Assembly: GCA_944358115.1 (NCBI GenBank)
Contig: CALVQH010000001.1
Coordinates: 5,263 to 69,262 of the forward strand
Length of the DNA stretch: 64,000 nucleotides
Source: an uncultured Bacilli bacterium
GTDB taxonomy: Bacteria > Bacillota_I > Bacilli_A > RF39 > UBA660
Direction of reading: 5' to 3'
Part shown: positions 30,249 to 51,799 of the stretch, in pieces
Layout of the letters: every line of letters starts with the position of its first letter
Position numbering within the stretch: position 1 is the first letter of the stretch
Program-made: the position numbers and the translations under genes
The notes under the pieces: generated by a model
The model's input: the letters and a program-made list of their open reading frames with translations, nothing else
The model's database searches: none
What the model was told of the DNA's origin: nothing

Positions 30249-30377
30249 ATTTAACCTCTTTCTATCCTCCTAATGATAACATAAAAAAGTATGAAATTCA
30301 ATTGCTTATCACCAAGTTCTATGTTATAATGAATTAAATTGATAAATATTTTTTGGCATGAAAGTAGGGATACTAGA

Positions 30378-32621
30378 ATGAACACAGAAGAATTAAGACA
30401 AACATTATTTGAAATGATTGAGGAAGGAAGAAATTTATCACTTTCTGAAACAGAATTAGTTCCTCATACGGAAGTAAGAGTAAAAAAGGGTAAGACACAA
30501 GATTTTTTAAATTTGGCAAAAGAGTATTATCAAAGACAAATAAAAGAAGAAGAAGCCTTAAATTATGTTTTAAAAGATTTAAAAGAACCGGAAGAAGAAA
30601 ATCTATTAGAAGATAAGGAAAACAATATATATAAAAAGGATTTTCAAAAATTAGAAGAACTAAATAAAAGTTTAGAATTAAATGCGAAAGATAGAGCAAA
30701 ATATCAGAAAGCCAAAGACGATCTAAGTAAAAGAGCAGAACAAGATCCTGGAATCTGGAGTGAGATAAGAAATCTTCAAGATTTAATAAAATCCTTAGAA
30801 GATGAAAAAAGAGAAATACAAAATAATATTGCTAAAATAAAAGATGAGATTAATAATCGTGTAAAAGCTTTAGTAGAAGAAAGAATGAATACTCTAAGAG
30901 AACGCTATCTTGCTTCTAAACCCAAAGATCATGAGACCGGTTATGATGATGCTTTTATTTTAAAAGAAGATAAAGAAGAATATGATGATTTATATTTATT
31001 ATTAAAAGTAATCGAAAATGCAAGGGAAGACCTTCCTTTGATAAATATTGATAATCTTATATGTGTAAACCCTCATCAAGAAGCAACCGCTCACATATTA
31101 ACCTCAAGACTCTCAATATTAAAAAGTTTAAATCCAGAAATAAAGCCATTAAAAAAGCCCCAACTATTGGAATTAAACGAAGAATTGACAAAAGAAATTG
31201 CAATGGAATTAGCAACACTAATTAAACATGCTAAAGATCACCCTGAAGAACCTTTAGCCGAAGGCAAAGAAGTATTAGCAAGTGATTTAGAAGAGTATAA
31301 TTTACTAGCAAAACAATTTGAAATATTGACCATGGTTTATGATACGGATACCTTGACAATGATAGGAAAGGCCAAAATACCAATTGAAAAAGAAGAAGAA
31401 TACAAACGTGTTTGCACGAAACTAGAAGCATTAAGAAAATTAAAGGAAGAAGCAAATGCTCACACTGAAAAAATAGAACCAACGGAAGGAAAAGGAAAGA
31501 AAAATCCCGCAAGCAAGTTAGAACATAAAGATACAAAAGAAAACAAAAATTTACCAGTAAAAGAGCAACTAAAAAGAAAAGCAGTAAAAATGATTCGCAA
31601 GGCAAAGAATCAAGAATGGTGGCAGAAAAATGGTAAAAAAGTAGTTGGTGTTGGTTTATCTCTAGCTGTTGCAGCTTATTCTCTTACCACACTTGCTCCT
31701 ACCGTTATTTATGCAACCAGCTGTTTATCTTTAGCAAATCCAGCTTTAGCAGGAGCTATTAATAGCTTTAATGCTAGTTTAATTAATGGACTAGGTCTTT
31801 CACTAGGATCTCTAAACTTAAATATTGCCGCAGCGAATGTAGGAGCAGCCATGCTTACCAGTTTAGTGAAATTAGGCCTCATCGGTGGAGGACTTGCCGC
31901 AGCAAACAAAATTATCAAAACGGAAGAAATGCAAAAACTACCTGATCCTGAAAGAAAAACACTTACACAAAAATTAATAAATTTAGGTGATCAAATCATT
32001 GGTAAAACAAAAGAAGTAGCTTCCACTCTTACTGATAAAGTATCTACCTTGACTGAAAATCTGGCCTATGCTACAGATGGCCCAAACATCAATTTAGTAA
32101 ATGAAGGCATTAAAGCAAAAATCGAGGCGGATAGCAATATTGAGTCTTTAGATGATGATGCAACATTTAAGGAAATACAAGAAGGGGTAACAAAGCAAAT
32201 CGCAGAACAAGAAAGTAAGCTAGAAGAAGAAGCGCAAAAAAGAAAAGCCATTGAAGATCGAATTAATGAAAGATTTAATAGTATTAAGCATGATGAAGCA
32301 GCAATTTATATCAAACCTACTAATATTGCCCCTCCAAAAGTGGAAGAAAAACTTACCCCACCGGTAATTAAACTTCCATCTGATGAAGAAATCATGCAAT
32401 CAATTAGTACAGAAAATCTAAATTTAGCGCGGATAGATAATTATTTAGAGGCAATGCAAGAAAATGATTTTATGACTGCTCGTAATCTTCAAAGTCTCAT
32501 TCTAGGTGAAACTGGAATCAATGTTGGCGAATATGATATAAAGGAAGAAGCGGAAATAAACCGCTTGAGGGAAGATATCTTAAATGCTACAAATAATAAA
32601 GAAGAAAAGAGGACTAGGTAA
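30378..32621 (+). CDS. Large coiled-coil protein with central Gly/Ala-rich hydrophobic segment
   Basis: K/E-rich heptad-like N- and C-terminal halves. The central ~100 aa (VVGVGLSLAVAAY...GLIGGGLAAANKII) is hydrophobic and low-complexity. ATG at 30378 behind a GGGA RBS. Confidence 0.4.
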   Translation: MNTEELRQTLFEMIEEGRNLSLSETELVPHTEVRVKKGKTQDFLNLAKEYYQRQIKEEEALNYVLKDLKEPEEENLLEDKENNIYKKDFQKLEELNKSLELNAKDRAKYQKAKDDLSKRAEQDPGIWSEIRNLQDLIKSLEDEKREIQNNIAKIKDEINNRVKALVEERMNTLRERYLASKPKDHETGYDDAFILKEDKEEYDDLYLLLKVIENAREDLPLINIDNLICVNPHQEATAHILTSRLSILKSLNPEIKPLKKPQLLELNEELTKEIAMELATLIKHAKDHPEEPLAEGKEVLASDLEEYNLLAKQFEILTMVYDTDTLTMIGKAKIPIEKEEEYKRVCTKLEALRKLKEEANAHTEKIEPTEGKGKKNPASKLEHKDTKENKNLPVKEQLKRKAVKMIRKAKNQEWWQKNGKKVVGVGLSLAVAAYSLTTLAPTVIYATSCLSLANPALAGAINSFNASLINGLGLSLGSLNLNIAAANVGAAMLTSLVKLGLIGGGLAAANKIIKTEEMQKLPDPERKTLTQKLINLGDQIIGKTKEVASTLTDKVSTLTENLAYATDGPNINLVNEGIKAKIEADSNIESLDDDATFKEIQEGVTKQIAEQESKLEEEAQKRKAIEDRINERFNSIKHDEAAIYIKPTNIAPPKVEEKLTPPVIKLPSDEEIMQSISTENLNLARIDNYLEAMQENDFMTARNLQSLILGETGINVGEYDIKEEAEINRLREDILNATNNKEEKRTR

Positions 32622-33093: not shown

Positions 33094-36000
33094 ATGAAAA
33101 ATTTTAAAGATTTAGACAAACGTAACGTAAATTTAGTAGAAAAGGATATAAGGGATTACTGGGATAAAATAGATATCCTAAAAAGAAGTATTGAAACGAG
33201 AGATAAAGAAAATAACTTTGTTTTCTATGATGGACCAGCAACCGCAAATGGTATGCCAGGACTTCATCATATGGTAGCAAAATTCTTAAAAGATACATTC
33301 TGCAAATATGAAACAATGAAAGGAAAAAGAGTAATAAGAAAAATTGGTTGGGATACCCATGGCTTACCCGTGGAAGTTCAAGTTGAAAAGAAACTTGGGT
33401 TTACTGGCAAAGGTGACATTGAAAAATACGGAATTAAAGAATTTAATCAAAAATGCCGCGAAACTGTTTGGGAAAATGAAGATGCTTTCTCTAGACTAAC
33501 CAAAGAAATGGGACAATTCATTGATTTAGAGCATCCCTACATCACGTATAATAATGACTATATCGAAACGGAGTGGTGGATCTTAAAGAAATTCTTTGAT
33601 GAAGGATTATTCTATGAAGGTCTAAAAATTTTACCATATTGTCCTAGATGTGGTACCGGTCTTGCCTCACATGAAGTTCAACAAGGCTATAAAGAAGTAG
33701 AGGTAGATACAGTCATCGTTCCTTTTAAAAGAGTAGATAAAGATGAATATTTCTTAGTTTGGACAACTACTCCATGGACCTTAATTGCTAATGTTGCTTT
33801 ATGTGTTCATCCCGATGAAGATTATGTACTAGTAGAATCAAAAGGTTATAAATTTATTTTAGCTGCTAAATTAGCATCAACTGTTTTAGGCGAAGAATAC
33901 ACCGTTTTAGATACATTTAAAGGTAGTACCCTAGAAAATGTTGGTTATGAGCAATTGATACCAAGCTTGTCAGTTAATAAAAAAGCATTCTATGTAACGT
34001 GTGATACGTATGTAACCATGGAAGATGGAACGGGTATTGTTCACATTGCTCCTGCTTTTGGTGCGGATGATTATGAAGTAGGAAGACGTTATAATTTGCC
34101 AATTTTAAATCCAGTTGGTGATGATGGCTGTTATACGGAAGGATTATGGAAGGGAATGTTTGTCTTTGATGCGGATAAAGAAGTCATTAAATATTTAAAA
34201 GAAAATGATAAATTATTCAAAAAAATTCACATGACTCATAACTATCCTCATTGTTGGCGTTGTAATACTCCACTCATCTATTATTCAAAACCAAGTTATT
34301 ATTTAGAGATTACTAAAATAAAGGATAAAATTGTAGAAAATAATAAAAAGGTAAATTGGTACCCAGATTATGTCGGTGAAAAAAGATTTGGCAACTGGCT
34401 AGAAAACTTAAATGACTGGGCTATTTCTAGAAGTCGTTATTGGGGAACTCCACTACCACTTTGGAGATGTGAATGTGGCCATATGGATATGATTGGTTCC
34501 CGCACAGAATTAGTTGAAAAAGCGATTGAAGAAATTGATGAATCCATTGATTTACACCGTCCATATGTTGATGATGTTCATATCAAGTGTCCAAAATGTG
34601 GTAAAGTAATGAGTCGTACGCCAGAAGTAATTGACTGTTGGTTCGATAGTGGAGCAATGCCTTTTGCTCAATATCATTATCCATTTGAAAACATGGATAT
34701 CTTTGAATCTCAATTTCCAGCTGACTTCATTTGTGAAGGAATTGATCAAACCAGAGGTTGGTTCTATTCTTTAATTGTTATTGGTACTTTTGTAAAAGGT
34801 GTAAGTCCTTATAAAAATGTATTAGTAAACGAATTATTACTAGATAAACATGGTAAAAAAATGCATAAATCAAAAGGCAATGCAATTGAACCATTTAGCT
34901 TGATGGAGCGTTTCGGTGTAGATACTATTCGTTGGTACTTACCTTATACTTCTCCTGTATGGACCCCAATCAAGTTTGATGAAGATGGCTTAAAAGAAGT
35001 ATATTCAAAATTCTTTAATCCCCTAAGAAATACTTATAATTTCTTTCAATTATATGCCAATACCGATCATATTGATATTGATGAATGTAAAGTAGCTTAT
35101 GAAGATTTAGAAGAAATTGATAAATGGTTATTATCAAAATATCATAATCTATTAAAATATGTAATCGAATCTTATGATGAATATGATTTAAATAAAGTAG
35201 TAAAGAGTATTACTAACTTTGTATCAGAGGATCTATCAAACTGGTATATTAGAAGAAATAGAAGTCGCTATTGGGGTAGTGAGCTTAATAATTCCAAAAA
35301 AGCCGTTTATAGTACAACTTATGAAGTTTTAGTGGGTGTATGTAAAATGATCGCTCCCGTAATTCCATATTTAAGCGAAGAATTATATCGTAATCTAACG
35401 GGAGAAGAATCTGTTCATCTAGCATATTTCCCTAAATACAATACAGAATATATTGATCTAAAACTAGAAGAAAAAATGGATACAGTAAGAACCCTAATTA
35501 GTATTGGCCGAAATGTTCGTGAAGAAGCGAAAATTAAGGTCAGAGAACCACTTTCAGAATGTTTATTAAACGCTGATTTAAAAGACTTAATCTCTGATTT
35601 AAAAGATTTAATCTTAGAAGAATTAAATGTCAAAGAAGTAGTCTTTGCCAGTGATTTAAATAAATACATGAGTTTCTTTGTAAAGCCAAACTTTAAAGTA
35701 GCTGGACCTGTATTTGGATCTAACATTCAAGTATTTAGTAATATTCTAGCCAATTTAACCGAAGAAGAAATTACAACTTTAAATAAAGGAGAAACCATTC
35801 ATATCACGATAGATGATACAGAATATGAAATTGATTCAAGCTATACCGATATTCGTATTAATGCCAAAGAAGGATACAATGTAGGCATGGAAAATAATTT
35901 ATTTGTTATTTTAAATACTGTACGTAGTGAAGAATTAATTTTAGAAGGAATTGCTCGTGAATTTGTATCTAAAGTTCAAAATATAAGAAAGAAAGAAGAT

Positions 36001-36186
36001 TACAATGTAGCAGATCGTATTACTATCGCTTATCATGGTGATGAGGTAGTTAAAAAATCAGTAGAAATGTTTGAAGATTATATCAAGAGTGAAACATTAA
36101 CTACGAAAATTACTTATCAAGAAGAAATAAAAGATGATCTAGATCTAAATGGTCATCAAGCTGGAATTACGACAAAGAGAGTTTAG
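33094..36186 (+). CDS. ileS: Isoleucine--tRNA ligase (long, type-2-like form)
   Basis: HIGH-region PGLHHMVAKF, WAISRSRYWGTPLP, KMHKSKGN (KMSKS), C-terminal Zn-ribbon CPKCG. 1030 aa. Confidence 0.85.
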   Translation: MKNFKDLDKRNVNLVEKDIRDYWDKIDILKRSIETRDKENNFVFYDGPATANGMPGLHHMVAKFLKDTFCKYETMKGKRVIRKIGWDTHGLPVEVQVEKKLGFTGKGDIEKYGIKEFNQKCRETVWENEDAFSRLTKEMGQFIDLEHPYITYNNDYIETEWWILKKFFDEGLFYEGLKILPYCPRCGTGLASHEVQQGYKEVEVDTVIVPFKRVDKDEYFLVWTTTPWTLIANVALCVHPDEDYVLVESKGYKFILAAKLASTVLGEEYTVLDTFKGSTLENVGYEQLIPSLSVNKKAFYVTCDTYVTMEDGTGIVHIAPAFGADDYEVGRRYNLPILNPVGDDGCYTEGLWKGMFVFDADKEVIKYLKENDKLFKKIHMTHNYPHCWRCNTPLIYYSKPSYYLEITKIKDKIVENNKKVNWYPDYVGEKRFGNWLENLNDWAISRSRYWGTPLPLWRCECGHMDMIGSRTELVEKAIEEIDESIDLHRPYVDDVHIKCPKCGKVMSRTPEVIDCWFDSGAMPFAQYHYPFENMDIFESQFPADFICEGIDQTRGWFYSLIVIGTFVKGVSPYKNVLVNELLLDKHGKKMHKSKGNAIEPFSLMERFGVDTIRWYLPYTSPVWTPIKFDEDGLKEVYSKFFNPLRNTYNFFQLYANTDHIDIDECKVAYEDLEEIDKWLLSKYHNLLKYVIESYDEYDLNKVVKSITNFVSEDLSNWYIRRNRSRYWGSELNNSKKAVYSTTYEVLVGVCKMIAPVIPYLSEELYRNLTGEESVHLAYFPKYNTEYIDLKLEEKMDTVRTLISIGRNVREEAKIKVREPLSECLLNADLKDLISDLKDLILEELNVKEVVFASDLNKYMSFFVKPNFKVAGPVFGSNIQVFSNILANLTEEEITTLNKGETIHITIDDTEYEIDSSYTDIRINAKEGYNVGMENNLFVILNTVRSEELILEGIAREFVSKVQNIRKKEDYNVADRITIAYHGDEVVKKSVEMFEDYIKSETLTTKITYQEEIKDDLDLNGHQAGITTKRV

Positions 36187-36270: not shown

Positions 36271-37425
36271 ATGAATTTAAATGATTTAAAAGTAAGCGGT
36301 ACCAACCAAATAGAATTAAACGATTCTCTAAAAACATCACTATTAAGTCTAAAAATATCATTAAATGAAAGTACCCAAATCCCTAGTAATAACGAATTAA
36401 CTATTTATGTCGATACAAGTTCTACTCCAACCGAAAATAGAAAAACTTATACATTTCAATTAGATAATGCTTTATCTATAGGAGACGAATTTATTATGGA
36501 ACCAGTTATTACAGATAAAAATATTGAACTAAAAGCATATGTGAAAAGGAGTACAAATGATATCGAAGAAATAGAATATCAAAATATTTTATTATTTGCA
36601 GGAACAAACTATATCTATACCAATTATGAAAATGCTACTATAGATATAATGTATCCTAAAAATAATGATTTAGTAAAATATTATTTAAATAACATTTTAT
36701 ATAGTTTAAATAATAAAAATAAAATACTTAGTTTAGATGATATTTATTTCAAAGATGCTTTTACTGAGGTAGATGATAAGTTGAATGCAGCTTTAAATAA
36801 TTTAAGCATTGATTGCCTTACATCCAATAATAACAAATTTAGTTTAGATAGTGATGGTAATTTAACAGTTAATAGCCTAACAACTACTGTTTCATCATCA
36901 GCAGATTTAGATTTTAATGAAATTTATCCAATTGGCTCTGTTTATTTAAGTGTTAATTCAACAAATCCAAGTGTTTACTTTGGAGGAACTTGGGAACAAA
37001 TTAACGGTTATTATCTATATGCTGGAAATACTAATAATACTGGTGGTAGTAGTTTAACAGGAGAAGCATCTGGAAATACAGGATCTACAACATTAACTGC
37101 AAATCAAATTCCAAGCCATAGCCATTCAATTCCTTCACTAAATGGTACGGCCTCTTCGAATGGATCCCACACTCACAATATCGGCGCTGATTTTGATGGA
37201 GGGGCCGGAAGTGCACGTTACACTGTTCATTCAAGAGGAACAAGTGGAGCAGGATATTTAATGGCAACGTCTTCTTCTGGAGCACATACTCATAGTGTAA
37301 GCACAAATGCAAGCAATACAGGTTCATCTGGAGGTACATCAAGTCATACACACTCATTAAATAATCATACTCACACAATTAATCCACCATTTTATAGTTT
37401 ATTTGTATTTAAAAGAACCGCTTAA
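36271..37425 (+). CDS. Phage tail-fibre-like protein with HxH metal-binding fibre tip
   Basis: IYPIGSVYLSVNS...GGTWEQI plus five HxH repeats (SHSHSI, SHTHNI, AHTHSV, SHTHSL, NHTHTI) like the T4 gp37/gp12 needle. Gly/Ser/Thr-rich. Confidence 0.6.
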   Translation: MNLNDLKVSGTNQIELNDSLKTSLLSLKISLNESTQIPSNNELTIYVDTSSTPTENRKTYTFQLDNALSIGDEFIMEPVITDKNIELKAYVKRSTNDIEEIEYQNILLFAGTNYIYTNYENATIDIMYPKNNDLVKYYLNNILYSLNNKNKILSLDDIYFKDAFTEVDDKLNAALNNLSIDCLTSNNNKFSLDSDGNLTVNSLTTTVSSSADLDFNEIYPIGSVYLSVNSTNPSVYFGGTWEQINGYYLYAGNTNNTGGSSLTGEASGNTGSTTLTANQIPSHSHSIPSLNGTASSNGSHTHNIGADFDGGAGSARYTVHSRGTSGAGYLMATSSSGAHTHSVSTNASNTGSSGGTSSHTHSLNNHTHTINPPFYSLFVFKRTA

Positions 37426-37509
37426 AAAAACATCTTTTGATGTTTTTTTAGTTATTTGCCAATGCCATATTCTAAAAAGTACATAAACTAACTATGGGAA
37501 GGAGGCATT

Positions 37510-37875
37510 ATGAAAAATATTAAAGGCTACGTAAATATGAAAACTGATTTAAACCTTATTCTTTTAAGAATACAATTTTTAGAAGAAAAAGAAAAGCAAA
37601 TAAATAAAGAAAAAGTATCTCTTGAAGAATTAAAACAAAAATTAACAAATATTTTAAATCAAACGGAAGAAAAATTGAAAGAGTTAAAAGGGATAGACAG
37701 AGAATTGTTTTATGAAATAATGGTAAAAGGAACCAATGTAACAAGAGCAGTAGATAAAGTATCAATTACATATGATGTTGATCCATCAACGATTTGGAAG
37801 TATTACTATCCTAAAATAAAAGAAGACATCAAAAAATTAGAAAAAGAAATAATGTCTAGCGAGATTCTAGTATAA
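37510..37875 (+). CDS. Small coiled-coil hypothetical protein
   Basis: ORF only; lies between the fibre-like gene and the RHS gene. Confidence 0.3.
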   Translation: MKNIKGYVNMKTDLNLILLRIQFLEEKEKQINKEKVSLEELKQKLTNILNQTEEKLKELKGIDRELFYEIMVKGTNVTRAVDKVSITYDVDPSTIWKYYYPKIKEDIKKLEKEIMSSEILV

Positions 37876-37905
37876 ACTTTCATATTTATATATCGGGGTG
37901 AGAAT

Positions 37906-40900
37906 ATGAAAGAATTAAAACATCTTCGTAAACAAAATGAAAAACAATTCTTAAATGATGATGGGTCTATTTCCCTATATCTCTATAACAATGATATTCA
38001 TTATTTAAAAAATGGTGAATATCTAGAAATTGATAATACACTCGTTGAGGAAGAAAATAACATCATTAATAAAGAAAATAATTTTCATACACGTTTTACG
38101 AAAGATACAAAAACAAATTTATTAGTAGATATTACCAAAGATAATTATTATCTAAAAATTTATTTAATGAAATCAAAAAATAATGCAATGAATATGAAGA
38201 AAAATAAAAACAATATAAAACTAGAAAATATCTTAGAAGATATAGATATTGATTATCATGTAATATCGACACAATTAAAGGAAGCTATTATTTTAAAAAA
38301 TAAAAATAATATTCCTACCTCTTTATCTTTTAAAGTAGATACTAACCTAGATTTAGAAGTGGAAGAAAAGGGAAGTGTTCTAGCAAAAGATAAAGAAAAA
38401 CCAATTTTTGTAATTGCAGCACCTTTTATGAAAGATAATAAAGGAACATACAATTACAAGATAAAATACGATTTAAGTTTAAAAGATGATACGTATATCT
38501 TAAACTTAAATTTAGATCAAGAATGGTTAAATGAAGCAGAGTTCCCTGTAGTAATTGATCCAACAATTGTAAATCCGGACGAAGAAGATCCAGAAAATGT
38601 ATATGATGCATATATAAGCTCGAGTCTTCCTGATATGAATATGAATACTCACGAGGAACTATACGTTGGTTCGAATTCAACTAGAACAACAAGAACATTA
38701 TTAAAGTTTAAACTTCCAACAATTGGTACAGGATATGATATTGTAAATGCCACAGCGTATCTAAATAGCGAATTTATGTCTTTAAATGGTAAAACAATTA
38801 ACGTTCATGAGATAACTAACGATTGGAATGAAGCAACAGTTACTTGGAATAGTATCTATGATAAGTATAATTCAAAAATCGAAGAGTATTTTTATGAACA
38901 AAGAACGGTACAAAGTGAGAAAATATTCCCGTTCAATATTACCAATTTAGTCAAAAAATGGTATGCGGGTAATCCTAATTATGGCCTCATGTTAAAGTTA
39001 AATGATGAAACGCCAAATGATGACAATGATAGTTACATCTTTTATTCTAAAACTTATGATGGTTTAAATGAAACAGGATTAAGGCCTTATTTAGCCATTA
39101 CTTATCGTAATCAGAATGGCCTAGAGGATTATATGACTTATCAAACACAAGAATACACAGATGGTGCAAGCTATATCAATAATTTAACTGGTAATCTAAC
39201 CACTACATTCAATTTAAATGAAACAATAGGGGGTAAATATCCAATTGGTTTAAGTCTAGTTTATAATACGAATGATATGGTTTTAAATAATAACTATGGT
39301 TATCAATCTGGATACAAATTAAATTTACATGAAACAATAAAAGAAGTAACAATAGACCTAAATAATTACTTAGAATATATAGATGCTGATGGTACAATCC
39401 ATTACTTTCGAAATGAATTAGATGAAGAAGGAGAAAAAATTGATAATAAGTACATAGATGAAGATGGATTAGGCCTAAACGCTACAAAAGAAACAAATAA
39501 AGTAATAATAGAAGATATAAATAGTAATAAATATGAATTTTCTTTAAATAATAATATTTATTATTTAACCAAATTAACAAATACAAATAATGATAGTGTA
39601 ACAATAACATATGATACAAATAACCGAATCAATAAAGTAACAGATGCCAATAATTCTAGCATCAATATTACATATAATACAAATAATATGATTATTACCA
39701 GTGATAGCACAACAACAACAGTCAATTATACAAATAATAAAGTAACTAGTATAATAAGTAAAAATGGTACCACCAATTTTACTTATAATAATTATGGCTT
39801 AATTAGTAAAATTACCGATGTAAATGGATTAAGTAAAGCTTTTAATTATTATGATGTAAGTCCATATAAAATAAAAAAAGTAATAGAATATGGCTTAAAT
39901 GATGAAGAAGGAGCTTCTCTAGAATTTGAATACGGCTTTTTAGTTACAAGAGTAAAAGATAATAAGGATCGATATAATACCTATATTTTTAACGAACAAG
40001 GAAATACAATTGGTTTTACGAATTTAGATGAAGAAGCAAATTTAAATAATGCTTATGGAAAAGGTGTAGTTTATGAAAATACCACAATTTATAAAGAAAA
40101 TAATGGTACCTATTTTGAAGATATAAATCGAGCAGGAAATAAATTGAAAAATGAAATATTAGCAGTTAAATACACGAAAAATTTAATTAAAAATAGTAGT
40201 TTTGAAGATGCAGAAACATTCTTTATTGGAACTAGAACAACGGAAGAAAAAAGAACTGGAAGTTATAGTTTAAAATTTTCTGATTATTGCTATTTTGAAG
40301 ATCCATCTCTTCCGCCGCGAGGAAAAAATTATACTTTTAGTGGATACTTTAAAAATGATAAAACCTTAACCATGAGCTTAGAAAGAAGAGGATTAAATAA
40401 AACGGATACTTTAGATATAATATCTATTCCTCCAAATGAAGATTTTACAAAATATAGCGTGACGGGTGATTATCCTTCTTCTGAAGAAGAAGGCGGATAT
40501 ATTTCAGTAACGATAACTTCAAATGAAAAAGGAACAGCCTATTTAGATGATGTACAACTTGAAGAAGGAGAAATTGCTAATTATTATAATATGTTAGAAA
40601 ATGGTGATTTCCATGATGGATTAACTGGATGGAATGCAAGTGCCTATGATCGTGAAGGAAATAGTATTAATAATGTAGCAAGTGTAGTAACATTAGAAAA
40701 TGGCGTAAAAGCTTTAAAAATAGCTTCTAATCCTGATTTAGATATTGCTGTTTCCACTACTTTAAAAGTAAATGGAATTGGTGATTTATCGGAAGATAGA
40801 ATAGGAGACTTATATAATTTATCATTCTGGTATAAAAACGAAGGATTACCAAAGGGCGGAACAGGAATGGAATATAGTAATTCTGTATTATTAAGCTTTT

Positions 40901-43900
40901 ATTATACCAACGTACCTGAAGGTGAAGGGTACGGAATTGATCCTATTGGTTTAACTTCTCATAGTAATGAATGGCAATATTTCTCAGCTCCATTCCCAAC
41001 AGATAGTTTATATAATTATGATACCATCGCTTTAACCATATTATCAAATTATAATGCCAATAACTTATATATTACCAATATTTCTTTATCAAAAGATATA
41101 GAACAAAATTATAATTATCATAATAGTGAAACTGGTAATTTAGAGGGAATTAGAAACATGGATAGTTCTCATGCTAGTTTCACTTATGATGAAAATAATC
41201 AATTAACAAGTATGTTTAATCCATTAGGTAATAACTTTAAATTTGAATACGATAATGTGGTAACAGATCGTATATTAAAAGGAATATCACCATCAGGAAT
41301 ATCGAATGAAATTTTATATGATGAATTTGGTAATCCTAAAAAAACAATCATCAATAATGTCAATCCAGATCAAGATATTATGGATGGTAAAACTTATTAT
41401 ATTCGTTTAAAAGGTTCACAAGAATATTGGGATAGTAATTTTATAACAAATGAGATTTTATTAAAAGAAGATAATTGTAGTCATGATACTTACACTCTTT
41501 TAAAAGAGGGTGAATACTTCCGAATAAAAAGTGGGAATGAGTATGTAACACTCATAAATGATTCAATTGGTTTAACCAAGTTAATGACTGATGATTCTTT
41601 GTTCAGATTTTTCCTCCAAAACAACAATAGTTACATCATCATTCCCAAAACCAAAGATAATACATTACTAGAACACAATCTAGCAAATGTAAATGGTAAA
41701 ATTTCTTTAAAAACAAGTGATACCAAAGAATATGAAGAGCAATTTTATTTTGAAGATATTGATACGCAATTGTTTATTGAATCAAAAGCGGAATATACTG
41801 AAGATGGAAAGTTTGTTACCCAAACAATCGATTCTTTAGGCAAAGTTACATCTTATGATATTAATACCACCAATGGTTTAACTAATAGTATTACTGATGC
41901 AAACAACATAACAACTTACTATACTTATAATACTAAAGATCAAATAACCAAAGTAAAGAAAGAAAACAAAGAAGTAAACTATGATTATAATAGCAATAAT
42001 TTACTATCAAAAATAACTTCAAATAACAAAGAATATAACTTTACTTATGATAATTTCTTAAATTCCAAACAAATAAAAATAGGAGACAATATTACTCTTA
42101 TTACTAATAATTATGAAAATAATAATGGGAATCTTCTATCAAGTGTTTATGGTAATGGTGATACATTTAGTTACACTTATGATGAACTTGATAGAATTAA
42201 AACAATGACAAATGATGCTAGTACCTATACATATCATTATGATAATTTGGGCAATTTAGCTAAAATAACAAGTATAAGTGAAAATTATAATTATTATTAT
42301 GACTTATCTAATAGGATTAGCAAATACCTAGTCAATAACTTTAATATTGAGTATGACTATGATTCGAATAATAATATACTTAAGAAAGAGTATACATTAA
42401 ATGATAAAGAAACAGTTACTTTTGAATATAACACCGATGATGCAATAACCAAAGTAACATTCGATAATAATAATTTAAATTATGCTTATGATTATCTAGG
42501 AAGATTAACTAGTAAAGATATAAATGGCAATCAAAAGATAGAGTATACATACATAACAAATGGTAATAAAACTTCTACTGTATTAAAATCCATGAAAATA
42601 AATAATGATTTATATGAATATTATTATGATCATCTATATAATATCACAGATATTTATTTAAATAATAAATTAATTAATCATTATGAGTATGATAATTTTA
42701 ATGAACTAATTAAAGAAGATAGCTATAGTTTAAACAAAACAATAAGATATACTTATGATAATGCTGGAAACATATTAAAGAAACAAGAATACGAATTAGA
42801 TACTTATAATTTATTACATACAGATACTTATGAATATAATAATGTTAATTGGGAAGGCCAATTGACAAAATATAACAATGAATCAATTACTTATGATGCT
42901 ATAGGTAATCCATTAACCATAGGAAATAAAACACTAACTTGGGTAAATGGTAGACAACTAGCAAGTTATACCGATGAAAGTCTAAATATTTCTTATACTT
43001 ATAATAAAGATGGAATAAGAACAGAGAAAGTAATAAATAATACAAAAACTAATTACTTTACAGAAAATAATAAGATAATATTTGAACAAACAGGAAATAA
43101 TATGGTATACTATATACGAGATGAGGAAGGAAGTTTAATAGGATTTAAATATAATAATACACTTTATTATTATATAAAAAACATGCAAGAAGATATCATA
43201 GGAATAACGGATAGTAATTATAACTTAGTATGCAGTTATGAATATGATTCATGGGGAAAACTAATATCCATTAAAGATAATAATGGAAACATTATTACTA
43301 ATACATCTCATATAGGTTATATCAATCCATTTAGATATAGGTCATACTATTATGATAATGAAACAAAGTTGTATTATCTAAATAGTAGATACTATAATCC
43401 AGAATGGGGTAGATTTATTAATGCAGATAGATTTATAAGCACAGATACAGGTATAATTGGCTTCAATATGTATGCTTATTGTAATAATGAGCCAATATCA
43501 AGAAAAGATTATAGTGGAAGTTTCTTCGGACTAGTTTTTGGAATGTTTGCAGTTACAGCTGGAATTATTCTTGGTGCAGAGATTATTGATAATAATAATA
43601 AAAAACAAAATAAAAAAGCTAAAAAAGAAATAGAAGAAGTGCAAAAAAAACACAATGTTTGTCCAATAGAAGAAAATAAAAATTTTAAAGAAACTTTAAA
43701 AACTAATGCAAAAAAAGTTCAAAATGATACTCAAAATATGAATTATATAGAAAGACTAAACTATTTAAGAGAAAATGCAAATGATGGTCAAAAATTCGAT
43801 TTAAAACTATTTACAAAAGATACAATATTTTATGACGGTATGTATATGGAACCACAAGATATCGGTAACTATCACTTTGGGTACATAGGTAGAGCTGCAG

Positions 43901-44070
43901 GCATTCAAACTTGGGTTTTATTAAAGGGTGCCTCAGTAAATCAAATAAAGAAAATGAATTGGGAAGTATTTAAAAATTGTTTTACTACATCTTTCTGCGA
44001 CGATCCTAGAGATCAATATTTTATAAAAATGGGAGCGATAGCATATGATAAAGAACATAAAAATAAATAG
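37906..44070 (+). CDS. RHS/YD-repeat polymorphic toxin (2054 aa) with DNRLRE-like N-terminal domain and variable C-terminal toxin domain
   Basis: Dozens of YD repeats (YTYD.NGN., YDxxGRL). Canonical RHS core end RYYNPEWGRFINADRF followed by NMYAYCNNEPI. N-terminal DAYISSSLPDMNMNTHEELYVGSNS...LLKFKL matches the DNRLRE domain. No signal peptide. A TM helix (FFGLVFGMFAVTAGIILG) follows the core. Confidence 0.85.
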   Translation: MKELKHLRKQNEKQFLNDDGSISLYLYNNDIHYLKNGEYLEIDNTLVEEENNIINKENNFHTRFTKDTKTNLLVDITKDNYYLKIYLMKSKNNAMNMKKNKNNIKLENILEDIDIDYHVISTQLKEAIILKNKNNIPTSLSFKVDTNLDLEVEEKGSVLAKDKEKPIFVIAAPFMKDNKGTYNYKIKYDLSLKDDTYILNLNLDQEWLNEAEFPVVIDPTIVNPDEEDPENVYDAYISSSLPDMNMNTHEELYVGSNSTRTTRTLLKFKLPTIGTGYDIVNATAYLNSEFMSLNGKTINVHEITNDWNEATVTWNSIYDKYNSKIEEYFYEQRTVQSEKIFPFNITNLVKKWYAGNPNYGLMLKLNDETPNDDNDSYIFYSKTYDGLNETGLRPYLAITYRNQNGLEDYMTYQTQEYTDGASYINNLTGNLTTTFNLNETIGGKYPIGLSLVYNTNDMVLNNNYGYQSGYKLNLHETIKEVTIDLNNYLEYIDADGTIHYFRNELDEEGEKIDNKYIDEDGLGLNATKETNKVIIEDINSNKYEFSLNNNIYYLTKLTNTNNDSVTITYDTNNRINKVTDANNSSINITYNTNNMIITSDSTTTTVNYTNNKVTSIISKNGTTNFTYNNYGLISKITDVNGLSKAFNYYDVSPYKIKKVIEYGLNDEEGASLEFEYGFLVTRVKDNKDRYNTYIFNEQGNTIGFTNLDEEANLNNAYGKGVVYENTTIYKENNGTYFEDINRAGNKLKNEILAVKYTKNLIKNSSFEDAETFFIGTRTTEEKRTGSYSLKFSDYCYFEDPSLPPRGKNYTFSGYFKNDKTLTMSLERRGLNKTDTLDIISIPPNEDFTKYSVTGDYPSSEEEGGYISVTITSNEKGTAYLDDVQLEEGEIANYYNMLENGDFHDGLTGWNASAYDREGNSINNVASVVTLENGVKALKIASNPDLDIAVSTTLKVNGIGDLSEDRIGDLYNLSFWYKNEGLPKGGTGMEYSNSVLLSFYYTNVPEGEGYGIDPIGLTSHSNEWQYFSAPFPTDSLYNYDTIALTILSNYNANNLYITNISLSKDIEQNYNYHNSETGNLEGIRNMDSSHASFTYDENNQLTSMFNPLGNNFKFEYDNVVTDRILKGISPSGISNEILYDEFGNPKKTIINNVNPDQDIMDGKTYYIRLKGSQEYWDSNFITNEILLKEDNCSHDTYTLLKEGEYFRIKSGNEYVTLINDSIGLTKLMTDDSLFRFFLQNNNSYIIIPKTKDNTLLEHNLANVNGKISLKTSDTKEYEEQFYFEDIDTQLFIESKAEYTEDGKFVTQTIDSLGKVTSYDINTTNGLTNSITDANNITTYYTYNTKDQITKVKKENKEVNYDYNSNNLLSKITSNNKEYNFTYDNFLNSKQIKIGDNITLITNNYENNNGNLLSSVYGNGDTFSYTYDELDRIKTMTNDASTYTYHYDNLGNLAKITSISENYNYYYDLSNRISKYLVNNFNIEYDYDSNNNILKKEYTLNDKETVTFEYNTDDAITKVTFDNNNLNYAYDYLGRLTSKDINGNQKIEYTYITNGNKTSTVLKSMKINNDLYEYYYDHLYNITDIYLNNKLINHYEYDNFNELIKEDSYSLNKTIRYTYDNAGNILKKQEYELDTYNLLHTDTYEYNNVNWEGQLTKYNNESITYDAIGNPLTIGNKTLTWVNGRQLASYTDESLNISYTYNKDGIRTEKVINNTKTNYFTENNKIIFEQTGNNMVYYIRDEEGSLIGFKYNNTLYYYIKNMQEDIIGITDSNYNLVCSYEYDSWGKLISIKDNNGNIITNTSHIGYINPFRYRSYYYDNETKLYYLNSRYYNPEWGRFINADRFISTDTGIIGFNMYAYCNNEPISRKDYSGSFFGLVFGMFAVTAGIILGAEIIDNNNKKQNKKAKKEIEEVQKKHNVCPIEENKNFKETLKTNAKKVQNDTQNMNYIERLNYLRENANDGQKFDLKLFTKDTIFYDGMYMEPQDIGNYHFGYIGRAAGIQTWVLLKGASVNQIKKMNWEVFKNCFTTSFCDDPRDQYFIKMGAIAYDKEHKNK

Positions 44071-44620
44071 AAAGAAAATTGTTATTGCTGGTATTCTAAT
44101 TGTATTAATAGCGTTATTAATAATTCCAATAATAGTTATTATGATACTTTTTGTTGATGGCCTTAAAGAGAATGCTATTGATAAAAAGGCTATGGAATAT
44201 GAAAGTGAAGAAAAGCGCTTAGAATACTTTTTAGAAAATGAAGAATACCTTAATAAATTAGCAAACTATTTTATAGAATATCCAGAACTTGATAGAATAG
44301 GAAAAAACATTTGGTGTTCTAATGCCGATGAACCAACATATGAATTGAATGATATAACAATTTGTACTTATAAAAAATTAGAAAATCTACCAATTAAAGA
44401 TATTGTAGAAATATATAAAAAAACAAACCTTTCAATTGTTGGTAGAAGGAATGACTGTATTGCATTTTATTTATACATAACAACATATCATGATGTTTGC
44501 TATAATTATTATTTCACTTCTTCAAAAAGTGAATATATAAAATATGATTATGGGATAATTGAAGAAAATGAAATAAATGAGAATTGGAGTAGTATGTTTT
44601 CAAATATTCCTTATGATTAA
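44045..44620 (+). CDS. Putative cognate immunity protein (N-terminal TM, 191 aa)
   Basis: Overlaps the last 26 nt of the RHS gene, the typical toxin-immunity arrangement. TM helix IVIAGILIVLIALLIIPIIVIMILF. Confidence 0.5.
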   Translation: MIKNIKINRKKIVIAGILIVLIALLIIPIIVIMILFVDGLKENAIDKKAMEYESEEKRLEYFLENEEYLNKLANYFIEYPELDRIGKNIWCSNADEPTYELNDITICTYKKLENLPIKDIVEIYKKTNLSIVGRRNDCIAFYLYITTYHDVCYNYYFTSSKSEYIKYDYGIIEENEINENWSSMFSNIPYD

Positions 44621-44838
44621 AAACAAGCAATATTAGAACTAATGTAATCAGTTTACACTAGTTCTTTTTATATATTTGAATAAACAGATAATAATATGGC
44701 ATAAGAATAAAATGCGTTAGCGTATGATGAAAATTCGCAAACATGCCTTTTGATTAAAGAATAAAAAAATTCAATATCATAGTACAATCGCCAACTCGTG
44801 TGTTCTCTTTTTTTCATACAATAAATAGGAGGAAGAAT

Positions 44839-45234
44839 ATGGAACATATATATAATGTAATCTCTTATTTATTGGGTGGAATTGATGCACCGATCATTGT
44901 CTTATTAATTACCATGGTCTATGTCTATCTAACGGGTTGGTGCAAAGTAATATTTTGCCATAAAATGAATAAATTAGTAGGCTTAAAAGGTATCATTCGT
45001 GATCTTGGCTATTTAATGATTGTGTCTTTATCGGTATTATTAGATCGTTTAATGGGAAGTGCGGAAGCGATAAGAACAATCGTTATTTATTTCTTTGTTG
45101 CCCATGAAGGTTTATTAATTTTAAAATGTTGGTGTAAAATGGGACTTCCTCTACCACAAAAAATATATAACACGCTAGAAAATTTATTAGGAGAGGAGGA
45201 ATCTGATGGCAACTCTACTGAACGTGAAGAATAA
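44839..45234 (+). CDS. Holin (phage_holin_4_1 / TcdE-like family)
   Basis: Three TM segments. The conserved YL.G.D.P...LL..M..DY.TG and GL.LP pattern of the family. RBS TAGGAGGAAG before ATG 44839. Confidence 0.65.
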   Translation: MEHIYNVISYLLGGIDAPIIVLLITMVYVYLTGWCKVIFCHKMNKLVGLKGIIRDLGYLMIVSLSVLLDRLMGSAEAIRTIVIYFFVAHEGLLILKCWCKMGLPLPQKIYNTLENLLGEEESDGNSTEREE

Positions 45235-45958
45235 TGTCTTAAAGAGGGGAAAGCATTACTTAACAAGTGACTATAAAACAAGAAATGAATCGAGAAGCAC
45301 CCATAATGGCATGGATTTGGTAGGACAAAATGGAGTAGATGATATTGTAGCCATAGAATCGGGAACCGTAACTTATACTGGTTATGATGCAAGTGGCGGT
45401 GGATACTGGATATCGATTACGACAAATGGGATAGAGCATCGTTATTTTCATTTAAAAAAAGGATCACTAAAAGTAAAGAAAGGCGATCGTGTAACCAAAG
45501 GTGATGTCATAGCAACCATGGGTGATTCTGGAAATGCTACGGGAAATAATCTTCATTTTGCTATTTATAAAAATGGTTATATTGACCCAAAACCATATTT
45601 AATGAATGATAATCCTTTTAATGTAGAAAGTAATGATGCTTACACCACATTTATTCGTGATTTACAAAAGGCAATCGGTACCAATGTAGACGGGATTGCT
45701 GGACCGGAAACACTATCAAAAACCCCAACCATATCAACAAGTACCGGCTGGAATCATGCCGCTGTTAGACCTTTACAAATTTATTTACAAAACTTAGGAT
45801 ATGATTTAGGAAGTAAAGGTGTAGATGGTCAGTTTGGAAAAGATATGAAGGCCTGTATTAAAAAGTACCAAAAAGATGTAGGTTTAGCATCAAAATACCA
45901 AGATGGTATTGTAACTGCTAAAATGTATACTTGGCAAAAATTATTAAAATTAAATTAA
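45206..45958 (+). CDS. M23 peptidase (LytM-type endopeptidase) with two peptidoglycan-binding repeats; endolysin-like
   Basis: HNGMDL...D...HLHFAI M23 signature. C-terminal PG_binding_1-like repeats (VDGIAGPETL, VDGQFGKDM). Overlaps the holin gene. Confidence 0.75.
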   Translation: MATLLNVKNNVLKRGKHYLTSDYKTRNESRSTHNGMDLVGQNGVDDIVAIESGTVTYTGYDASGGGYWISITTNGIEHRYFHLKKGSLKVKKGDRVTKGDVIATMGDSGNATGNNLHFAIYKNGYIDPKPYLMNDNPFNVESNDAYTTFIRDLQKAIGTNVDGIAGPETLSKTPTISTSTGWNHAAVRPLQIYLQNLGYDLGSKGVDGQFGKDMKACIKKYQKDVGLASKYQDGIVTAKMYTWQKLLKLN

Positions 45959-45986
45959 GAGCTTTATTTGTTAAGCTCTTTTTTTA
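45957..45986 (+). terminator. Rho-independent terminator
   Basis: aagagctt-tatttgtt-aagctctt hairpin plus T6. Confidence 0.65.
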
Positions 45987-49523: not shown

Positions 49524-50261
49524 ATGAGAACCAAAGAATTAGAAAATTTGAAACAAGAGTTTTTAAGAATTAAAAATATGGGGTATGTTAAAAGTACTAG
49601 ATCCGGTGTTACCGGAGTAGGCAAAACATTTGAAGATTTGCTGGGAAAAGAAGAAGATACAAAAGGAACTCCAGACTACCATGGCATTGAATTGAAAACA
49701 AAATTAGGATATAGTCAGTCTTATACAACACTCTTTAATTCTACGCCAGAGGGAGAATTGGAAACACAAAGACTATGTAAAGAATATGGCTATCCAGATA
49801 AAATTCTAAGGGATAAAAAAGTGTTAAATGTTTCAATTACTACAACACCAATTTTAGTAGCAAATCGATATTTTTTTAATTTAAAGGTAGATTACAATAT
49901 GAAAAAATTAATTTTAATAATTAAAAATAAATATGGTAAGATTTTAGAAAATAAAGTATACTGGAGTTTTGGAACATTAAAGGAAAAATTAAATACAAAA
50001 TTACAATATGTTGCATTAATTAATGCGTGGCCAACAACACGCAATAACGTAACATATTATAAATATTATAAAATTAATTTTTATAAATTAAAAACTTTTG
50101 AAAAATTTATAGAACTAATTGATAAAGGAATAATTCGTATAAGCTTAAAAATAGGAGTATACAGAACTGGAACCAAAAAAGGATTATACCATGATCGTGG
50201 AACAAGTTTTGAATTAAAAACTTTTGATTTTTATCAATTATTTGAACATATTTATATATGA
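49524..50261 (+). CDS. MvaI/BcnI-family (MutH-like) restriction endonuclease-like protein, apparently orphan
   Basis: N-terminal GVTGVGKTFEDLLGKEED...PDYHGIELKTK and C-terminal GLYHDRG resemble BcnI as recalled from memory. No adjacent methyltransferase. Confidence 0.45.
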   Translation: MRTKELENLKQEFLRIKNMGYVKSTRSGVTGVGKTFEDLLGKEEDTKGTPDYHGIELKTKLGYSQSYTTLFNSTPEGELETQRLCKEYGYPDKILRDKKVLNVSITTTPILVANRYFFNLKVDYNMKKLILIIKNKYGKILENKVYWSFGTLKEKLNTKLQYVALINAWPTTRNNVTYYKYYKINFYKLKTFEKFIELIDKGIIRISLKIGVYRTGTKKGLYHDRGTSFELKTFDFYQLFEHIYI

Positions 50262-50339
50262 TAATGCATTTTGTTTGGATCAAGGGGAATTCGCAGGCAT
50301 AAAAAAATCTCATACATAGATGAGATGTTTTTTCAAAAA

Positions 50340-50416
50340 TGGTCGGGAAGACAGGATTTGAACCTGCGACCCCTTGGTCCCAAACCAAGTGCACTACCAA
50401 ATTGTGCTACTTCCCG
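50340..50416 (-). tRNA. tRNA-Pro (anticodon UGG)
   Basis: CGGGAAGTAGCACAAT...anticodon loop TTTGGGA...CCA, read on the minus strand. Confidence 0.85.
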
Positions 50417-50424
50417 ATAATTAA

Positions 50425-50501
50425 TGGTGCGCCCTAAGGGAGTCGAACCCCTAACCTTTAGATCCGTAGTCTAACGCTCTATCCAATTGAGCTAAGGGCG
50501 C
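50425..50501 (-). tRNA. tRNA-Arg (anticodon ACG)
   Basis: GCGCCCTTAGCTCAATTGGATAGAGCGTTAGACTACGGATCTAAAGG...CCA closely matches Bacillus tRNA-Arg(ACG). Confidence 0.85.
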
Positions 50502-50612
50502 ATCTCCATTAGTTAGTGCACTTGTAAAATGCATTATCATTATATTATAATTATATGTAAAAATCAAGAGTTTTTGCATAAAAATCGGAAAAAATCAGAA
50601 AAAAGATAGAGA

Positions 50613-51056
50613 TTACTCAGCATCTCTATCTTTTCCTAATATTTTATCTATCGAATAATGATATTTTTTGGCTAACTCATAAAGAGTAGTAGTAAGAATT
50701 AAATTCTTAGCATTCTCATATCGATTCCAAGTTGGCTGATTAATATTTAGCTCATTAGAAATCTGTACTTGAGTTAAACCTTTCTTTAACCTAATTTTTT
50801 TCAAATTTTCACCAGTGACCTTTATTTTAATGTCTGGTTTTTGATTGGCATATTTCTTTTTGTTGTTAAAACCAACAACATAGTCAATAGAAACTCCAAA
50901 ATAATTGCAGAATTGATTTAATCTTTTTAATGGGATAGTATCAGTACCACATTCCCACATACTGTAGGAACCTTTAGATACGCCCATTACTTCTGCAATA
51001 TCTTTTTGTTTCAAACCAGCATCTTCCCTGATTTCCTTCATTCTTGGAAAATTCAT
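50613..51056 (-). CDS. Tandem-HTH XRE-family regulator (third paralog)
   Basis: Two HTH_XRE repeats (LKQKDIAEVMGVSKGSYSMWE and LTQVQISNELNINQPTWNRYE). ATG at 51056 with a GGTGATAGG RBS. Confidence 0.75.
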   Translation of the reverse strand: MNFPRMKEIREDAGLKQKDIAEVMGVSKGSYSMWECGTDTIPLKRLNQFCNYFGVSIDYVVGFNNKKKYANQKPDIKIKVTGENLKKIRLKKGLTQVQISNELNINQPTWNRYENAKNLILTTTLYELAKKYHYSIDKILGKDRDAE

Positions 51057-51174
51057 ACCTATCACCAGTAATAATTTTCTCAAAAAATACGTAATTATTA
51101 ACATTTTGGAGTTTATATGCATAGCGTTTTACAATAAACATGATATATGATAAAATTATGTTAGGTGATAGTAC

Positions 51175-51771: not shown

Positions 51772-51799
51772 GAGTATAATAAAAGCAAGAGGTTTAATT

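Follow-up and report, generated by a model that had tools for sequence, protein, structure and literature searches.

The window analysed here is a 64,000-nt stretch (29% G+C) from the small genome of an uncultured chicken-gut Bacilli bacterium; it corresponds to C1:5263-69262 of an assembly in 69 contigs (1.31 Mb, 93.5% complete). It contains an island of approximately 9.7 kb whose six genes, all on the + strand, encode in this order a tail fibre with a Gp10_C/HxH end, a small coiled-coil protein, an RHS toxin, a transmembrane immunity candidate, a holin and an M23 peptidase. The island lies between ileS (33094-36186) and the nfeD, SPFH and UDG genes (46047 onward); these neighbours are housekeeping genes, and the wider flanks are ordinary metabolic genes. 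An earlier reading of the letters alone (hereafter the sequence-only reading) had proposed a lysis-cassette-coupled RHS toxin at this site. Its gene order and annotation agree with the calls of open reading frames (ORFs) and with the Pfam, NCBIfam and PHROG matches, and every island ORF is intact, on the + strand and at the position it had assigned. The closest protein relatives carry the labels 'Candidatus Caccenecus avistercoris' and 'Mycoplasma sp. CAG:776'. The locus is present in chicken-gut metagenomes from 9 studies, and metagenome contigs from four DNA runs span the RHS, immunity and holin genes, which shows no more than its presence in further samples of chicken gut; no RNA data set was listed for it. 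The genes and features of the island are as follows.

36271..37425, + strand: tail-fibre or receptor-binding-protein-like gene, 384 aa (Pfam Gp10_C, PHROG tail fibre)
37510..37875, + strand: small conserved coiled-coil ORF, 121 aa, candidate regulator or fibre chaperone (homologues, AlphaFold2 (AF2) model)
37906..44070, + strand: RHS/YD polymorphic toxin, 2054 aa, approximately 235 kDa, no signal peptide (profile matches, hydropathy)
37906..38601, + strand: RHS N-terminal all-beta domain, aa 1-232, conserved family-wide (AF2 model, alignment with many invariant residues)
38602..39102, + strand: DNRLRE or CBM96-like carbohydrate-binding domain, aa 233-399 (NCBIfam NF033679, 1.9e-28)
43243..43518, + strand: RHS-associated core, aa 1780-1871, with a degenerate DPxGL-type cleavage motif at its end (Rhs_assc_core TIGR03696, 6.6e-17)
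43519..43587, + strand: hydrophobic glycine-containing helix, aa 1872-1894, between core and toxin domain (mean Kyte-Doolittle hydropathy 2.18)
43774..44052, + strand: Ntox44 toxin domain, aa 1957-2049 (Pfam PF15607, 1.8e-12)
44045..44620, + strand: candidate immunity protein, 191 aa, one N-terminal transmembrane segment (position, transmembrane scan)
44635..44665, + strand: terminator-like hairpin between the immunity and holin genes, 13-bp stem and T-run (read in the sequence)
44771..44799, + strand: conserved non-coding block of 29 nt, lying 40-70 nt before the holin start codon, which may serve the holin-M23 unit as promoter or operator (comparison with relative L027)
44839..45234, + strand: holin, 131 aa from the ATG at 44839, alternative GTG at 44800 (PF05105, TIGR01593)
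45206..45958, + strand: M23 peptidase without a signal peptide, bearing two PG_binding_1 repeats, its start overlapping the end of the holin gene (Pfam, PHROG endolysin families)
45957..45980, + strand: intrinsic-terminator-like hairpin closing the island (read in the sequence)

Besides the DNRLRE, core and Ntox44 matches listed above, the RHS protein matches RHS_repeat (PF05593, 1e-27) and TIGR01643. Ntox44 is an all-alpha polymorphic-toxin domain without an assigned activity (PMC3482391). The L027 orthologue, encoded at the corresponding place in the chromosome, is homologous as far as aa 1891, and orphan toxin cassettes in the relatives L031, L033 and L045 begin inside the core at aa 1733; together these two features give the usual tip-replacement signature of polymorphic toxins. 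Tox-REase-7, Tox-WTIP and other tips are found in relatives. The window itself holds no orphan toxin/immunity cassettes, the holin gene following a single immunity gene, and such cassettes are common in the family but not obligatory. By its repeats, its core and its variable tip with a downstream immunity candidate, the locus belongs to the RHS/YD polymorphic toxin systems. A segment comparable to the hydrophobic helix (hydropathy >1.8) occurs in 43 of 109 full-length homologues, including P0005-P0046. This glycine-rich helix stands 15-20 residues past the core cleavage motif whatever the toxin tip, and may help membrane entry.

Signal peptides were judged by hydropathy only. Within the first 50 aa of the RHS protein the maximum 12-residue hydropathy is 0.41, hence no hydrophobic stretch, and none of 121 RHS homologues has an N-terminal hydrophobic stretch above 2.0, against values of 2-3.7 in the signal-bearing relatives described below as group B. 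The earlier statement that the toxin lacks a signal peptide thus held, and its homologues are alike in this respect. No LXG or WXG100 domain was matched on the RHS protein, and a search of the 93.5%-complete genome for WXG100, though not for EssC or EssB, was negative, in agreement with the earlier remark that neither type lies nearby. The wall-anchor motifs LPXTG, SLH and LysM were not detected on the window RHS protein. The AF2 model of aa 1-460 has a pLDDT of 85. Residues 1-400 are 22-25% identical to a 1057-aa virion structural protein of IMG/VR phages, whose gene stands just after the tape-measure gene, and the best BFVD match of the N-terminal region is an uncharacterised gut siphovirus protein (E 6e-33). 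Residues 1-232 gave no convincing solved structure, the matches in the PDB concerning only the CBM96-like domain. The fold of this DNRLRE domain matches the chondroitin-sulfate-binding carbohydrate-binding module 8wab (target-normalised TM-score 0.74) and the alginate-binding module 7vbo.

The fibre protein scores 1.3e-12 (49 bits) with Pfam Gp10_C (PF21939) and 2.5e-20 with PHROG tail fibre, and contains five HxH motifs. It is divided into an N-domain (aa 1-150), a conserved centre (aa 151-245) and a variable HxH tip (aa 246-384), and mean pairwise identity among homologues is highest in the centre (59%) and lowest in the tip (38%). In tblastn searches, its C-terminal 170 residues share 53% identity with Blautia/Faecalimonas phage tail proteins, and its C-terminal part is 29% identical to the antireceptor of Lactobacillus phage LL-Ku; the N-terminal 215 residues had no match in the phage collection. 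The fibre therefore looks like a receptor binder, given these phage antireceptor and tail-protein matches at the C-terminus and a tip that is the most variable part, as expected of such proteins. In this genome the gene stands outside any tail module and is instead fixed beside the RHS gene.

The immunity candidate overlaps the 3' end of the RHS gene by 26 nt, and copies 76% identical to it are found in the variable cassette region of L027/L028. Searches of Pfam and NCBIfam gave no match at curated cut-offs and only a sub-threshold DUF6709. Its position points to an immunity protein. The hairpin at 44635-44665 is not conserved in L027; the block at 44771-44799 is nearly identical in the window and L027, although the flanking genes have synonymous divergence (dS) of approximately 1.

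The holin gene starts 0.8 kb after the end of the RHS gene. Its product matches Phage_holin_4_1 (PF05105) at 2.6e-25 and 89 bits, and TIGR01593, 'toxin secretion/phage lysis holin', at 61 bits against a cut-off of 40. The ATG at 44839 is a likelier start than the GTG at 44800, with a strong ribosome-binding site (AGGAGG) at 44827-44832. The protein has two to three hydrophobic segments and is the only holin_4_1 in the whole genome. The adjoining M23 protein falls among the PHROG endolysin families, and its closest solved structures are the M23 enzymes LytM and lysostaphin, which are relatives. The zinc ligands H33, D37 and H117 are kept, and the first His of the HxH motif is replaced by Asn115 (the motif reads N-L-H; codon 115 at approximately 45548-45550). 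Asn115 is common to the window and L027 enzymes, and HLH is kept in the RHS-linked M23 proteins of L032, L034, L046 and L044. With intact zinc ligands and strong purifying selection (see below), the window M23 may be an attenuated or re-purposed hydrolase. The island thus holds the features by which a type 10-like cassette is recognised in sequence, namely a holin, a coupled hydrolase without a signal and an adjacent cargo without a signal.

Seven M23 matches are unusually many for a 1.3-Mb genome. One of the strong matches and an additional weak one lie at C14:18053-18361 and C14:22618-22857, in open frames of 1002 and 1227 aa.

The island was compared across 55 loci encoding homologues of the RHS N-terminal region, which came from genomes of the same family and the same class, metagenome contigs and IMG/VR. 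Loci were annotated with small home-made profiles and precomputed Pfam matches; outside the Pfam-annotated loci, other hydrolase and holin families may have escaped the profiles. Two clean groups were obtained. Group A comprises 24 loci in approximately 17 contexts, including the window, and is signal-less; its RHS proteins begin at the conserved N-domain and have no hydrophobic N-terminus. The 31 loci of group B encode RHS proteins with an extension of 55-110 residues that contains a signal or transmembrane segment. A fibre homologue is located <=0.5 kb upstream of the RHS gene in 23 of the 24 group A loci, and the exception (L047) has just 0.9 kb of upstream sequence. The gap between the two genes is often 10-50 bp, or the genes overlap, and two or three short fibres sometimes stand in tandem. 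Starting from fibre proteins, three look-ups each led to a place next to an RHS gene. Within 20-kb windows, none of the 31 group B loci contained a gene for a fibre, holin_4_1, M23, CHAP or an alternative hydrolase. A peptidoglycan hydrolase adjoins the module in 12 of the 24 group A loci, or nine of approximately 15 evaluable contexts, mostly together with one or two small membrane proteins. The lysis parts are non-orthologous and their order changes between loci, as listed here.

holin_4_1, then M23/PG_binding_1: window, L027/28
M23/LysM, then holin_4_1: L032, L034, L046
two small ORFs, then M23: L044
weak holin_4_1 and weak M23: L019
lysis genes upstream of the fibre: L036; L018/L048/L049
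RDD membrane protein and CHAP: L033

As far as gene content across these loci goes, the fibre is the obligatory companion of the RHS toxin, and the lysis pair is frequent and clade-specific but facultative. The coupling put forward by the sequence-only reading survives in part: lysis genes recur beside RHS genes at unrelated sites and in the signal-less clade only, but the constant partner of the toxin is the fibre rather than the holin. That reading would have been given up if relatives lacked the lysis linkage, if a cryptic signal or type VII secretion (T7SS) motif had appeared, or if the holin and M23 genes were pseudogenes; the linkage recurs in relatives, no such signal or motif was found, and neither gene is a pseudogene. 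A census with one genome per genus gave 39 carriers in the informative score band, which mixes signal-bearing and signal-less homologues; the carriers belong to Bacilli_A, Clostridia and a few Bacilli. Gp10_C was found within 3 kb of the RHS gene in 12/39 carriers, against 0 at random places.

Several further observations were made on the relatives. In the loci with M23/LysM followed by holin_4_1, a conserved ORF of 167-173 aa always follows the holin (L032:16108-16629, L034:16887-17390, L046:20557-21075); it has no Pfam match and no transmembrane segment, and may be a further component. An RDD-family membrane protein stands in the holin's place at L031:18370-18777 and L033:20444-20860, in L033 directly before the CHAP hydrolase; RDD proteins are not known to act as holins. 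Upstream of the fibre-RHS pair in L022 (G010) and L037 lies a C39-peptidase ABC transporter of the bacteriocin-exporter type, and two ORFs of 44-54 aa between transporter and fibre in L037 suggest a small-peptide bacteriocin cluster. Signal-bearing WapA-like relatives often occur in three to four copies per genome (G432:C1, L063-L065; G395:C1, L070, L073 and L084; G351), each followed by small transmembrane or lipoprotein-like ORFs and orphan tips; the window family occurs as a single fibre-linked copy per genome.

A phage origin of the module is indicated by the lineage of L018, L048 and L049. There, a major tail protein, a tape-measure-like protein, tail proteins and a 652-aa long fibre are followed by lysis genes and the module, so that the right end reads two small transmembrane proteins, endolysin, short fibre, RHS and immunity. 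The long fibre shares the C-terminal module of the short fibre; an hhalign comparison of the RHS N-terminal region with the long fibre was negative. In L047, a gene for the large terminase subunit comes after the RHS locus. By this gene order, the fibre-RHS-immunity module of the L018/L048/L049 lineage is carried as cargo by a siphovirus-like prophage, at its right end and directly after the lysis cassette. Since one lineage carries the module as prophage cargo beside the phage's own lysis cassette, the window island is best seen as a domesticated prophage end.

HK97 capsid, TerL, Phage_sheath_1 and PhageMin_Tail (tape measure) were without a match in the whole 1.31-Mb window genome (integrase and baseplate families were not searched genome-wide). 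Of the genes that mark a prophage, which include those for capsid, terminase, portal, tail and integrase, the families searched thus left no trace, and housekeeping genes flank the island. The profile searches for sheath and tape measure likewise revealed no tail module, and no tailocin or contractile injection system. For this genome, the earlier judgement that the island is neither prophage nor tailocin was borne out.

The island is absent upstream of nfeD in the same-genus genome G138. In the more distant relative L027, whose ileS is 69% identical, it occupies the corresponding place between ileS and nfeD, and its central part is a variable cassette region. Ratios of non-synonymous to synonymous substitution (dN/dS) between the window and L027, at dS of approximately 1, were as follows.

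fibre: 0.16
coiled-coil ORF: 0.18
RHS: 0.23
immunity: 0.21
holin: 0.16
M23: 0.11
ileS, for comparison: 0.21

The holin and M23 proteins are 83% and 85% identical to their L027 orthologues, against 69% for ileS. The island is a maintained module and not a decaying relic, because dN/dS is 0.11-0.23 for all six genes, the holin and M23 exceed ileS in conservation and the 29-nt block has been kept.

We propose, with a probability of approximately 0.5, that the island is the domesticated right end of a temperate phage that has become a self-contained weapon of bacteriocin type: the holin and hydrolase would let the RHS toxin out, and the fibre would aim it. The RHS and fibre proteins would be made in the cytoplasm of immune producer cells. 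The holin-M23 unit, under separate control, would be switched on in some of these cells, opening the membrane and cutting the wall, and the toxin of approximately 235 kDa would escape with the fibre through lysis of a sacrificed subpopulation or through a more limited breach. Outside, the variable HxH tip of the fibre and the CBM96-like modules of the RHS protein would recognise glycopolymers or receptors on the surface of competitors; the RHS core would then release the hydrophobic helix and Ntox44 into the target, and the transmembrane immunity protein would shield kin. The coiled-coil protein might aid fibre trimerisation or, via a C-terminal half resembling sigma region 4, regulate the operon. 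At loci without an adjacent lysis pair, release may use autolysis, resident prophages or undetected genes. From the genes we infer the mode of release, the binding of fibre to RHS and the target.

More tentatively, the proposal can be taken further. The fibre may dock on a signal-less RHS shell whose N-terminal region derives from a phage tail tip, the holin and endolysin may provide the exit, and the fibre tip may pick the victims. Such a minimal 'tail-less tailocin', the counterpart of TcA plus TcB/C, would represent a new class of toxin delivery in Gram-positive bacteria. A complex prediction with three copies of fibre aa 150-384 and RHS aa 1-232 gave a score of 0.00, which lends the docking no support but does not speak against it either.

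Several results weigh against release by a dedicated lysis cassette. About 6 of the 15 evaluable contexts have no adjacent hydrolase or holin (L016, L020, L021, L022 and L037; L035 is ambiguous), and holin_4_1 is encoded elsewhere in the genome in just one of five fibre-RHS genomes without a visible lysis pair. Because these contexts lack a pair and four of the five genomes are without holin_4_1, a lysis pair of its own is not an obligatory part of the system. The census placed holin_4_1 within 10 kb in only 3/39 carriers, other holin families being invisible to it. The locus counts overstate independence, as the loci share ancestry. Within the window, the terminator-like hairpin stands between the toxin operon and the holin unit, and co-transcription is therefore not evident. 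Full lytic activity of the M23 enzyme is uncertain, because Asn replaces the first His of HxH, and M23 domains are common in this genome, with seven matches over the cut-off and a weak one (L093-L100).

The state of the M23 enzyme leads to the alternative that survives best, although we consider it unlikely. In this alternative, the holin and limited wall remodelling by an attenuated M23 let the RHS and fibre proteins pass without lysis, and the complex stays on the producer through CBM96-like or fibre domains and acts on contact, similar to WapA. An enzyme that has lost one catalytic His (N115), keeps its zinc ligands and is under strong purifying selection would suit such a role, as would a holin of the TIGR01593 family, whose non-lytic export is discussed (PMC9527704, PMC12150058). 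The signal-bearing relatives share the N-domain and the DNRLRE module, and a LysM/DNRLRE fragment of Streptococcus suis WapA binds its cognate sortase and was assigned to wall anchoring (PMC12704120). However, other lysis-linked loci encode canonical HLH M23 or CHAP enzymes of the endolysin type, the cassette of the prophage lineage is the phage's own and must lyse the cell, and none of the three wall-anchor motifs was detected on the window RHS protein.

Quite unlikely, and partly overlapping with the proposed weapon, is an accessory role in which the hydrolase is released with the RHS protein to open the thick wall of the target, the holin serving only to export the enzyme. Passage of a protein of >200 kDa through a Gram-positive wall is a stated open problem (PMC12704120), the hydrolases bear the wall-binding modules PG_binding_1 or LysM, and their closest solved relatives are M23 enzymes such as lysostaphin. 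Yet approximately 40% of contexts have no hydrolase, and the absence of a signal peptide together with the overlap with the holin gene is the architecture of endolysins that act from within.

It is very unlikely that the genes are accidental neighbours, that is, a remnant of a decayed prophage whose fibre, holin and endolysin are relics and whose RHS-immunity pair is a moron released independently. The space between tail-fibre and lysis genes is a classic site of morons, prophages carry the module in L018/L048/L049 and L047, several fibre-RHS loci lack lysis genes and G138 has no island. Such a remnant would hardly hold six intact genes with dN/dS this low at dS near 1, nor a holin and M23 that exceed ileS in conservation; moreover, the combination recurs at unrelated sites with different hydrolases, in a different order and without other phage genes, and never beside signal-bearing homologues. 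A phage-triggered abortive-infection or superinfection-exclusion device inside the cell, with the fibre as decoy or sensor, is scarcely credible and, like the relic, fits the data poorly: the missing export signal, the phage-derived parts and a prophage location typical of lysogen-benefit genes would agree with it, but none of the six island proteins matched a PADLOC defence family, the polymorphic tip, overlapping immunity gene and orphan cassettes are hallmarks of inter-bacterial polymorphic toxins (PMC3482391), and the carbohydrate-binding modules and receptor-binding tip argue for extracellular action.

The proposed weapon was compared with known systems. The Tc (ABC) toxins with the type 10 system of Yersinia entomophaga (PMC10847048, PMC10847046) likewise combine a huge signal-less toxin with an RHS/YD shell and, nearby, a phage-derived holin and peptidoglycan hydrolase, by which Tc is released from a subpopulation. 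A separate receptor-binding protein, TcA, aims the Tc shell, and the receptor-binding protein of trimeric-fibre type is the candidate counterpart in the window. Unlike the window system, Tc toxins are Gram-negative, insect-directed and need a spanin, and TcA forms a pentameric translocator with no relation to tail fibres; the window toxin is a putative antibacterial polymorphic toxin with an immunity candidate. The PaLoc of C. difficile (PMC12150058, PMC12485765) is Gram-positive and shares the signal-less large toxins, a TIGR01593 holin (TcdE) and phage-derived lysis genes in a chromosomal island without virion genes. Its toxins are host-directed glucosyltransferases, unlike that of the window, and it contains neither an immunity gene nor a fibre; its endolysin partner TcdL is a degenerate fragment, whereas the window M23 is full length and conserved.

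WapA-type proteins of B. subtilis and Streptococcus suis (PMC12704120) share the RHS shell, the polymorphic C-terminal toxin, the adjacent immunity gene and DNRLRE. The group B relatives are of this type and have the N-domain in common with the window RHS protein; unlike them, the window clade is without a Sec signal, and its RHS genes are linked to a fibre gene and in many cases to lysis genes. The Gp10_C/HxH proteins of the T4 gp10/gp12/gp37 type, of LL-Ku and of Blautia/Faecalimonas phages resemble the fibre over its C-terminal 170 residues (29-53% identity), but the N-terminal 215 residues of the window fibre are unmatched in the phage collection and the genome has no tail module.

R/F-type pyocins and other tailocins use phage lysis cassettes for release, and a phage fibre sets their target range. 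Unlike tailocins, the window genome has no sheath or tape measure (baseplate families were not searched), and the role of killer would fall to an enzyme or toxin encapsulated by RHS, in place of a pore-forming tail or, as in colicins, a colicin fold. Both with tailocins and with colicins, which have lysis proteins (PMC3482391), the island would share an immune producer and release by lysis of part of the population through dedicated or phage-derived lysis genes. On this comparison, the logic of the island appears closest to type 10-released Tc toxins and the PaLoc, and its ecology would resemble that of lysis-released bacteriocins and tailocins.

How Gram-positive bacteria export RHS toxins of >200 kDa, pass them across two thick walls and deliver them to the right target is an open question, made explicit for WapA (PMC12704120). 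The loci compared here offer a natural experiment, in that loss of the Sec signal in one clade was always accompanied by gain of a phage fibre gene and often by that of a lysis cassette. Our literature search, which missed most papers in subscription journals, returned no account of a fibre-linked and lysis-cassette-linked RHS system in Gram-positive bacteria. If the proposal is true, type 10-like release, known from Gram-negative toxins and from clostridial toxins directed at hosts, would also serve the antibacterial polymorphic toxins of gut Bacillota, and a new way of domesticating prophage ends would be added. The system would also be modular, with a swappable fibre tip and toxin tip, and would shape competition among uncultured small-genome gut bacteria.

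The sixth island gene, the coiled-coil ORF, has homologues between fibre and RHS in 10 of the 24 signal-less loci, representing approximately five contexts. The AF2 model of its product (pLDDT 90) consists of a long helix followed by three short ones (residues 2-58, 61-72, 77-87 and 92-115). The best Foldseek matches are to sigma-factor region 4, with E values of 0.25-1 that are not significant, and the Atlas leads are Sigma70_r4, DUF1492 and DUF722; these loosely tie the three-helix end to sigma region 4 and ArpU-like phage regulators, no test being significant. Pfam, NCBIfam and PHROGs gave nothing above chance, and a wide search with VIA-align was dominated by generic long helices. An hhalign comparison with Sigma70_r4 proteins of 156-158 aa near some relatives was negative. 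Its position right after the fibre gene would also fit a fibre chaperone. In phage T4, gp57A aids the trimerisation of HxH fibres.

These Sigma70_r4 proteins of 156-158 aa are conserved, with an N-terminal PKRRKxxDNPY motif and a Sigma70_r4 C-terminus, and lie near the fibre-RHS loci of some relatives. They are encoded just upstream of the fibre at L019:14666-15142(-), L025:3562-4038(-) and L044:9283-9753(+), and approximately 4.5 kb downstream of the RHS gene at L032:18685-19161(+). They may be dedicated regulators, reminiscent of toxin sigma factors of the TcdR/UviA type.

Elsewhere in the window, an ORF at 30339-32621 (760 aa, TTG start), upstream of a DUF1292-like gene and ileS, has no family match; its counterpart at the equal position in L027 and L045 is 1241 aa long, and the ORF is either shortened here or its start is mis-set. 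A RhuM-family/Fic-domain protein (24277-25218) is encoded amid metabolic genes. Downstream of the island, an MvaI/BcnI-family restriction endonuclease (49524-50261) adjoins a double helix-turn-helix regulator on the opposite strand (50613-51122) and lies beside two ORFs without family matches (51175-52537), so that 49524-52537 is possibly a restriction-modification unit.

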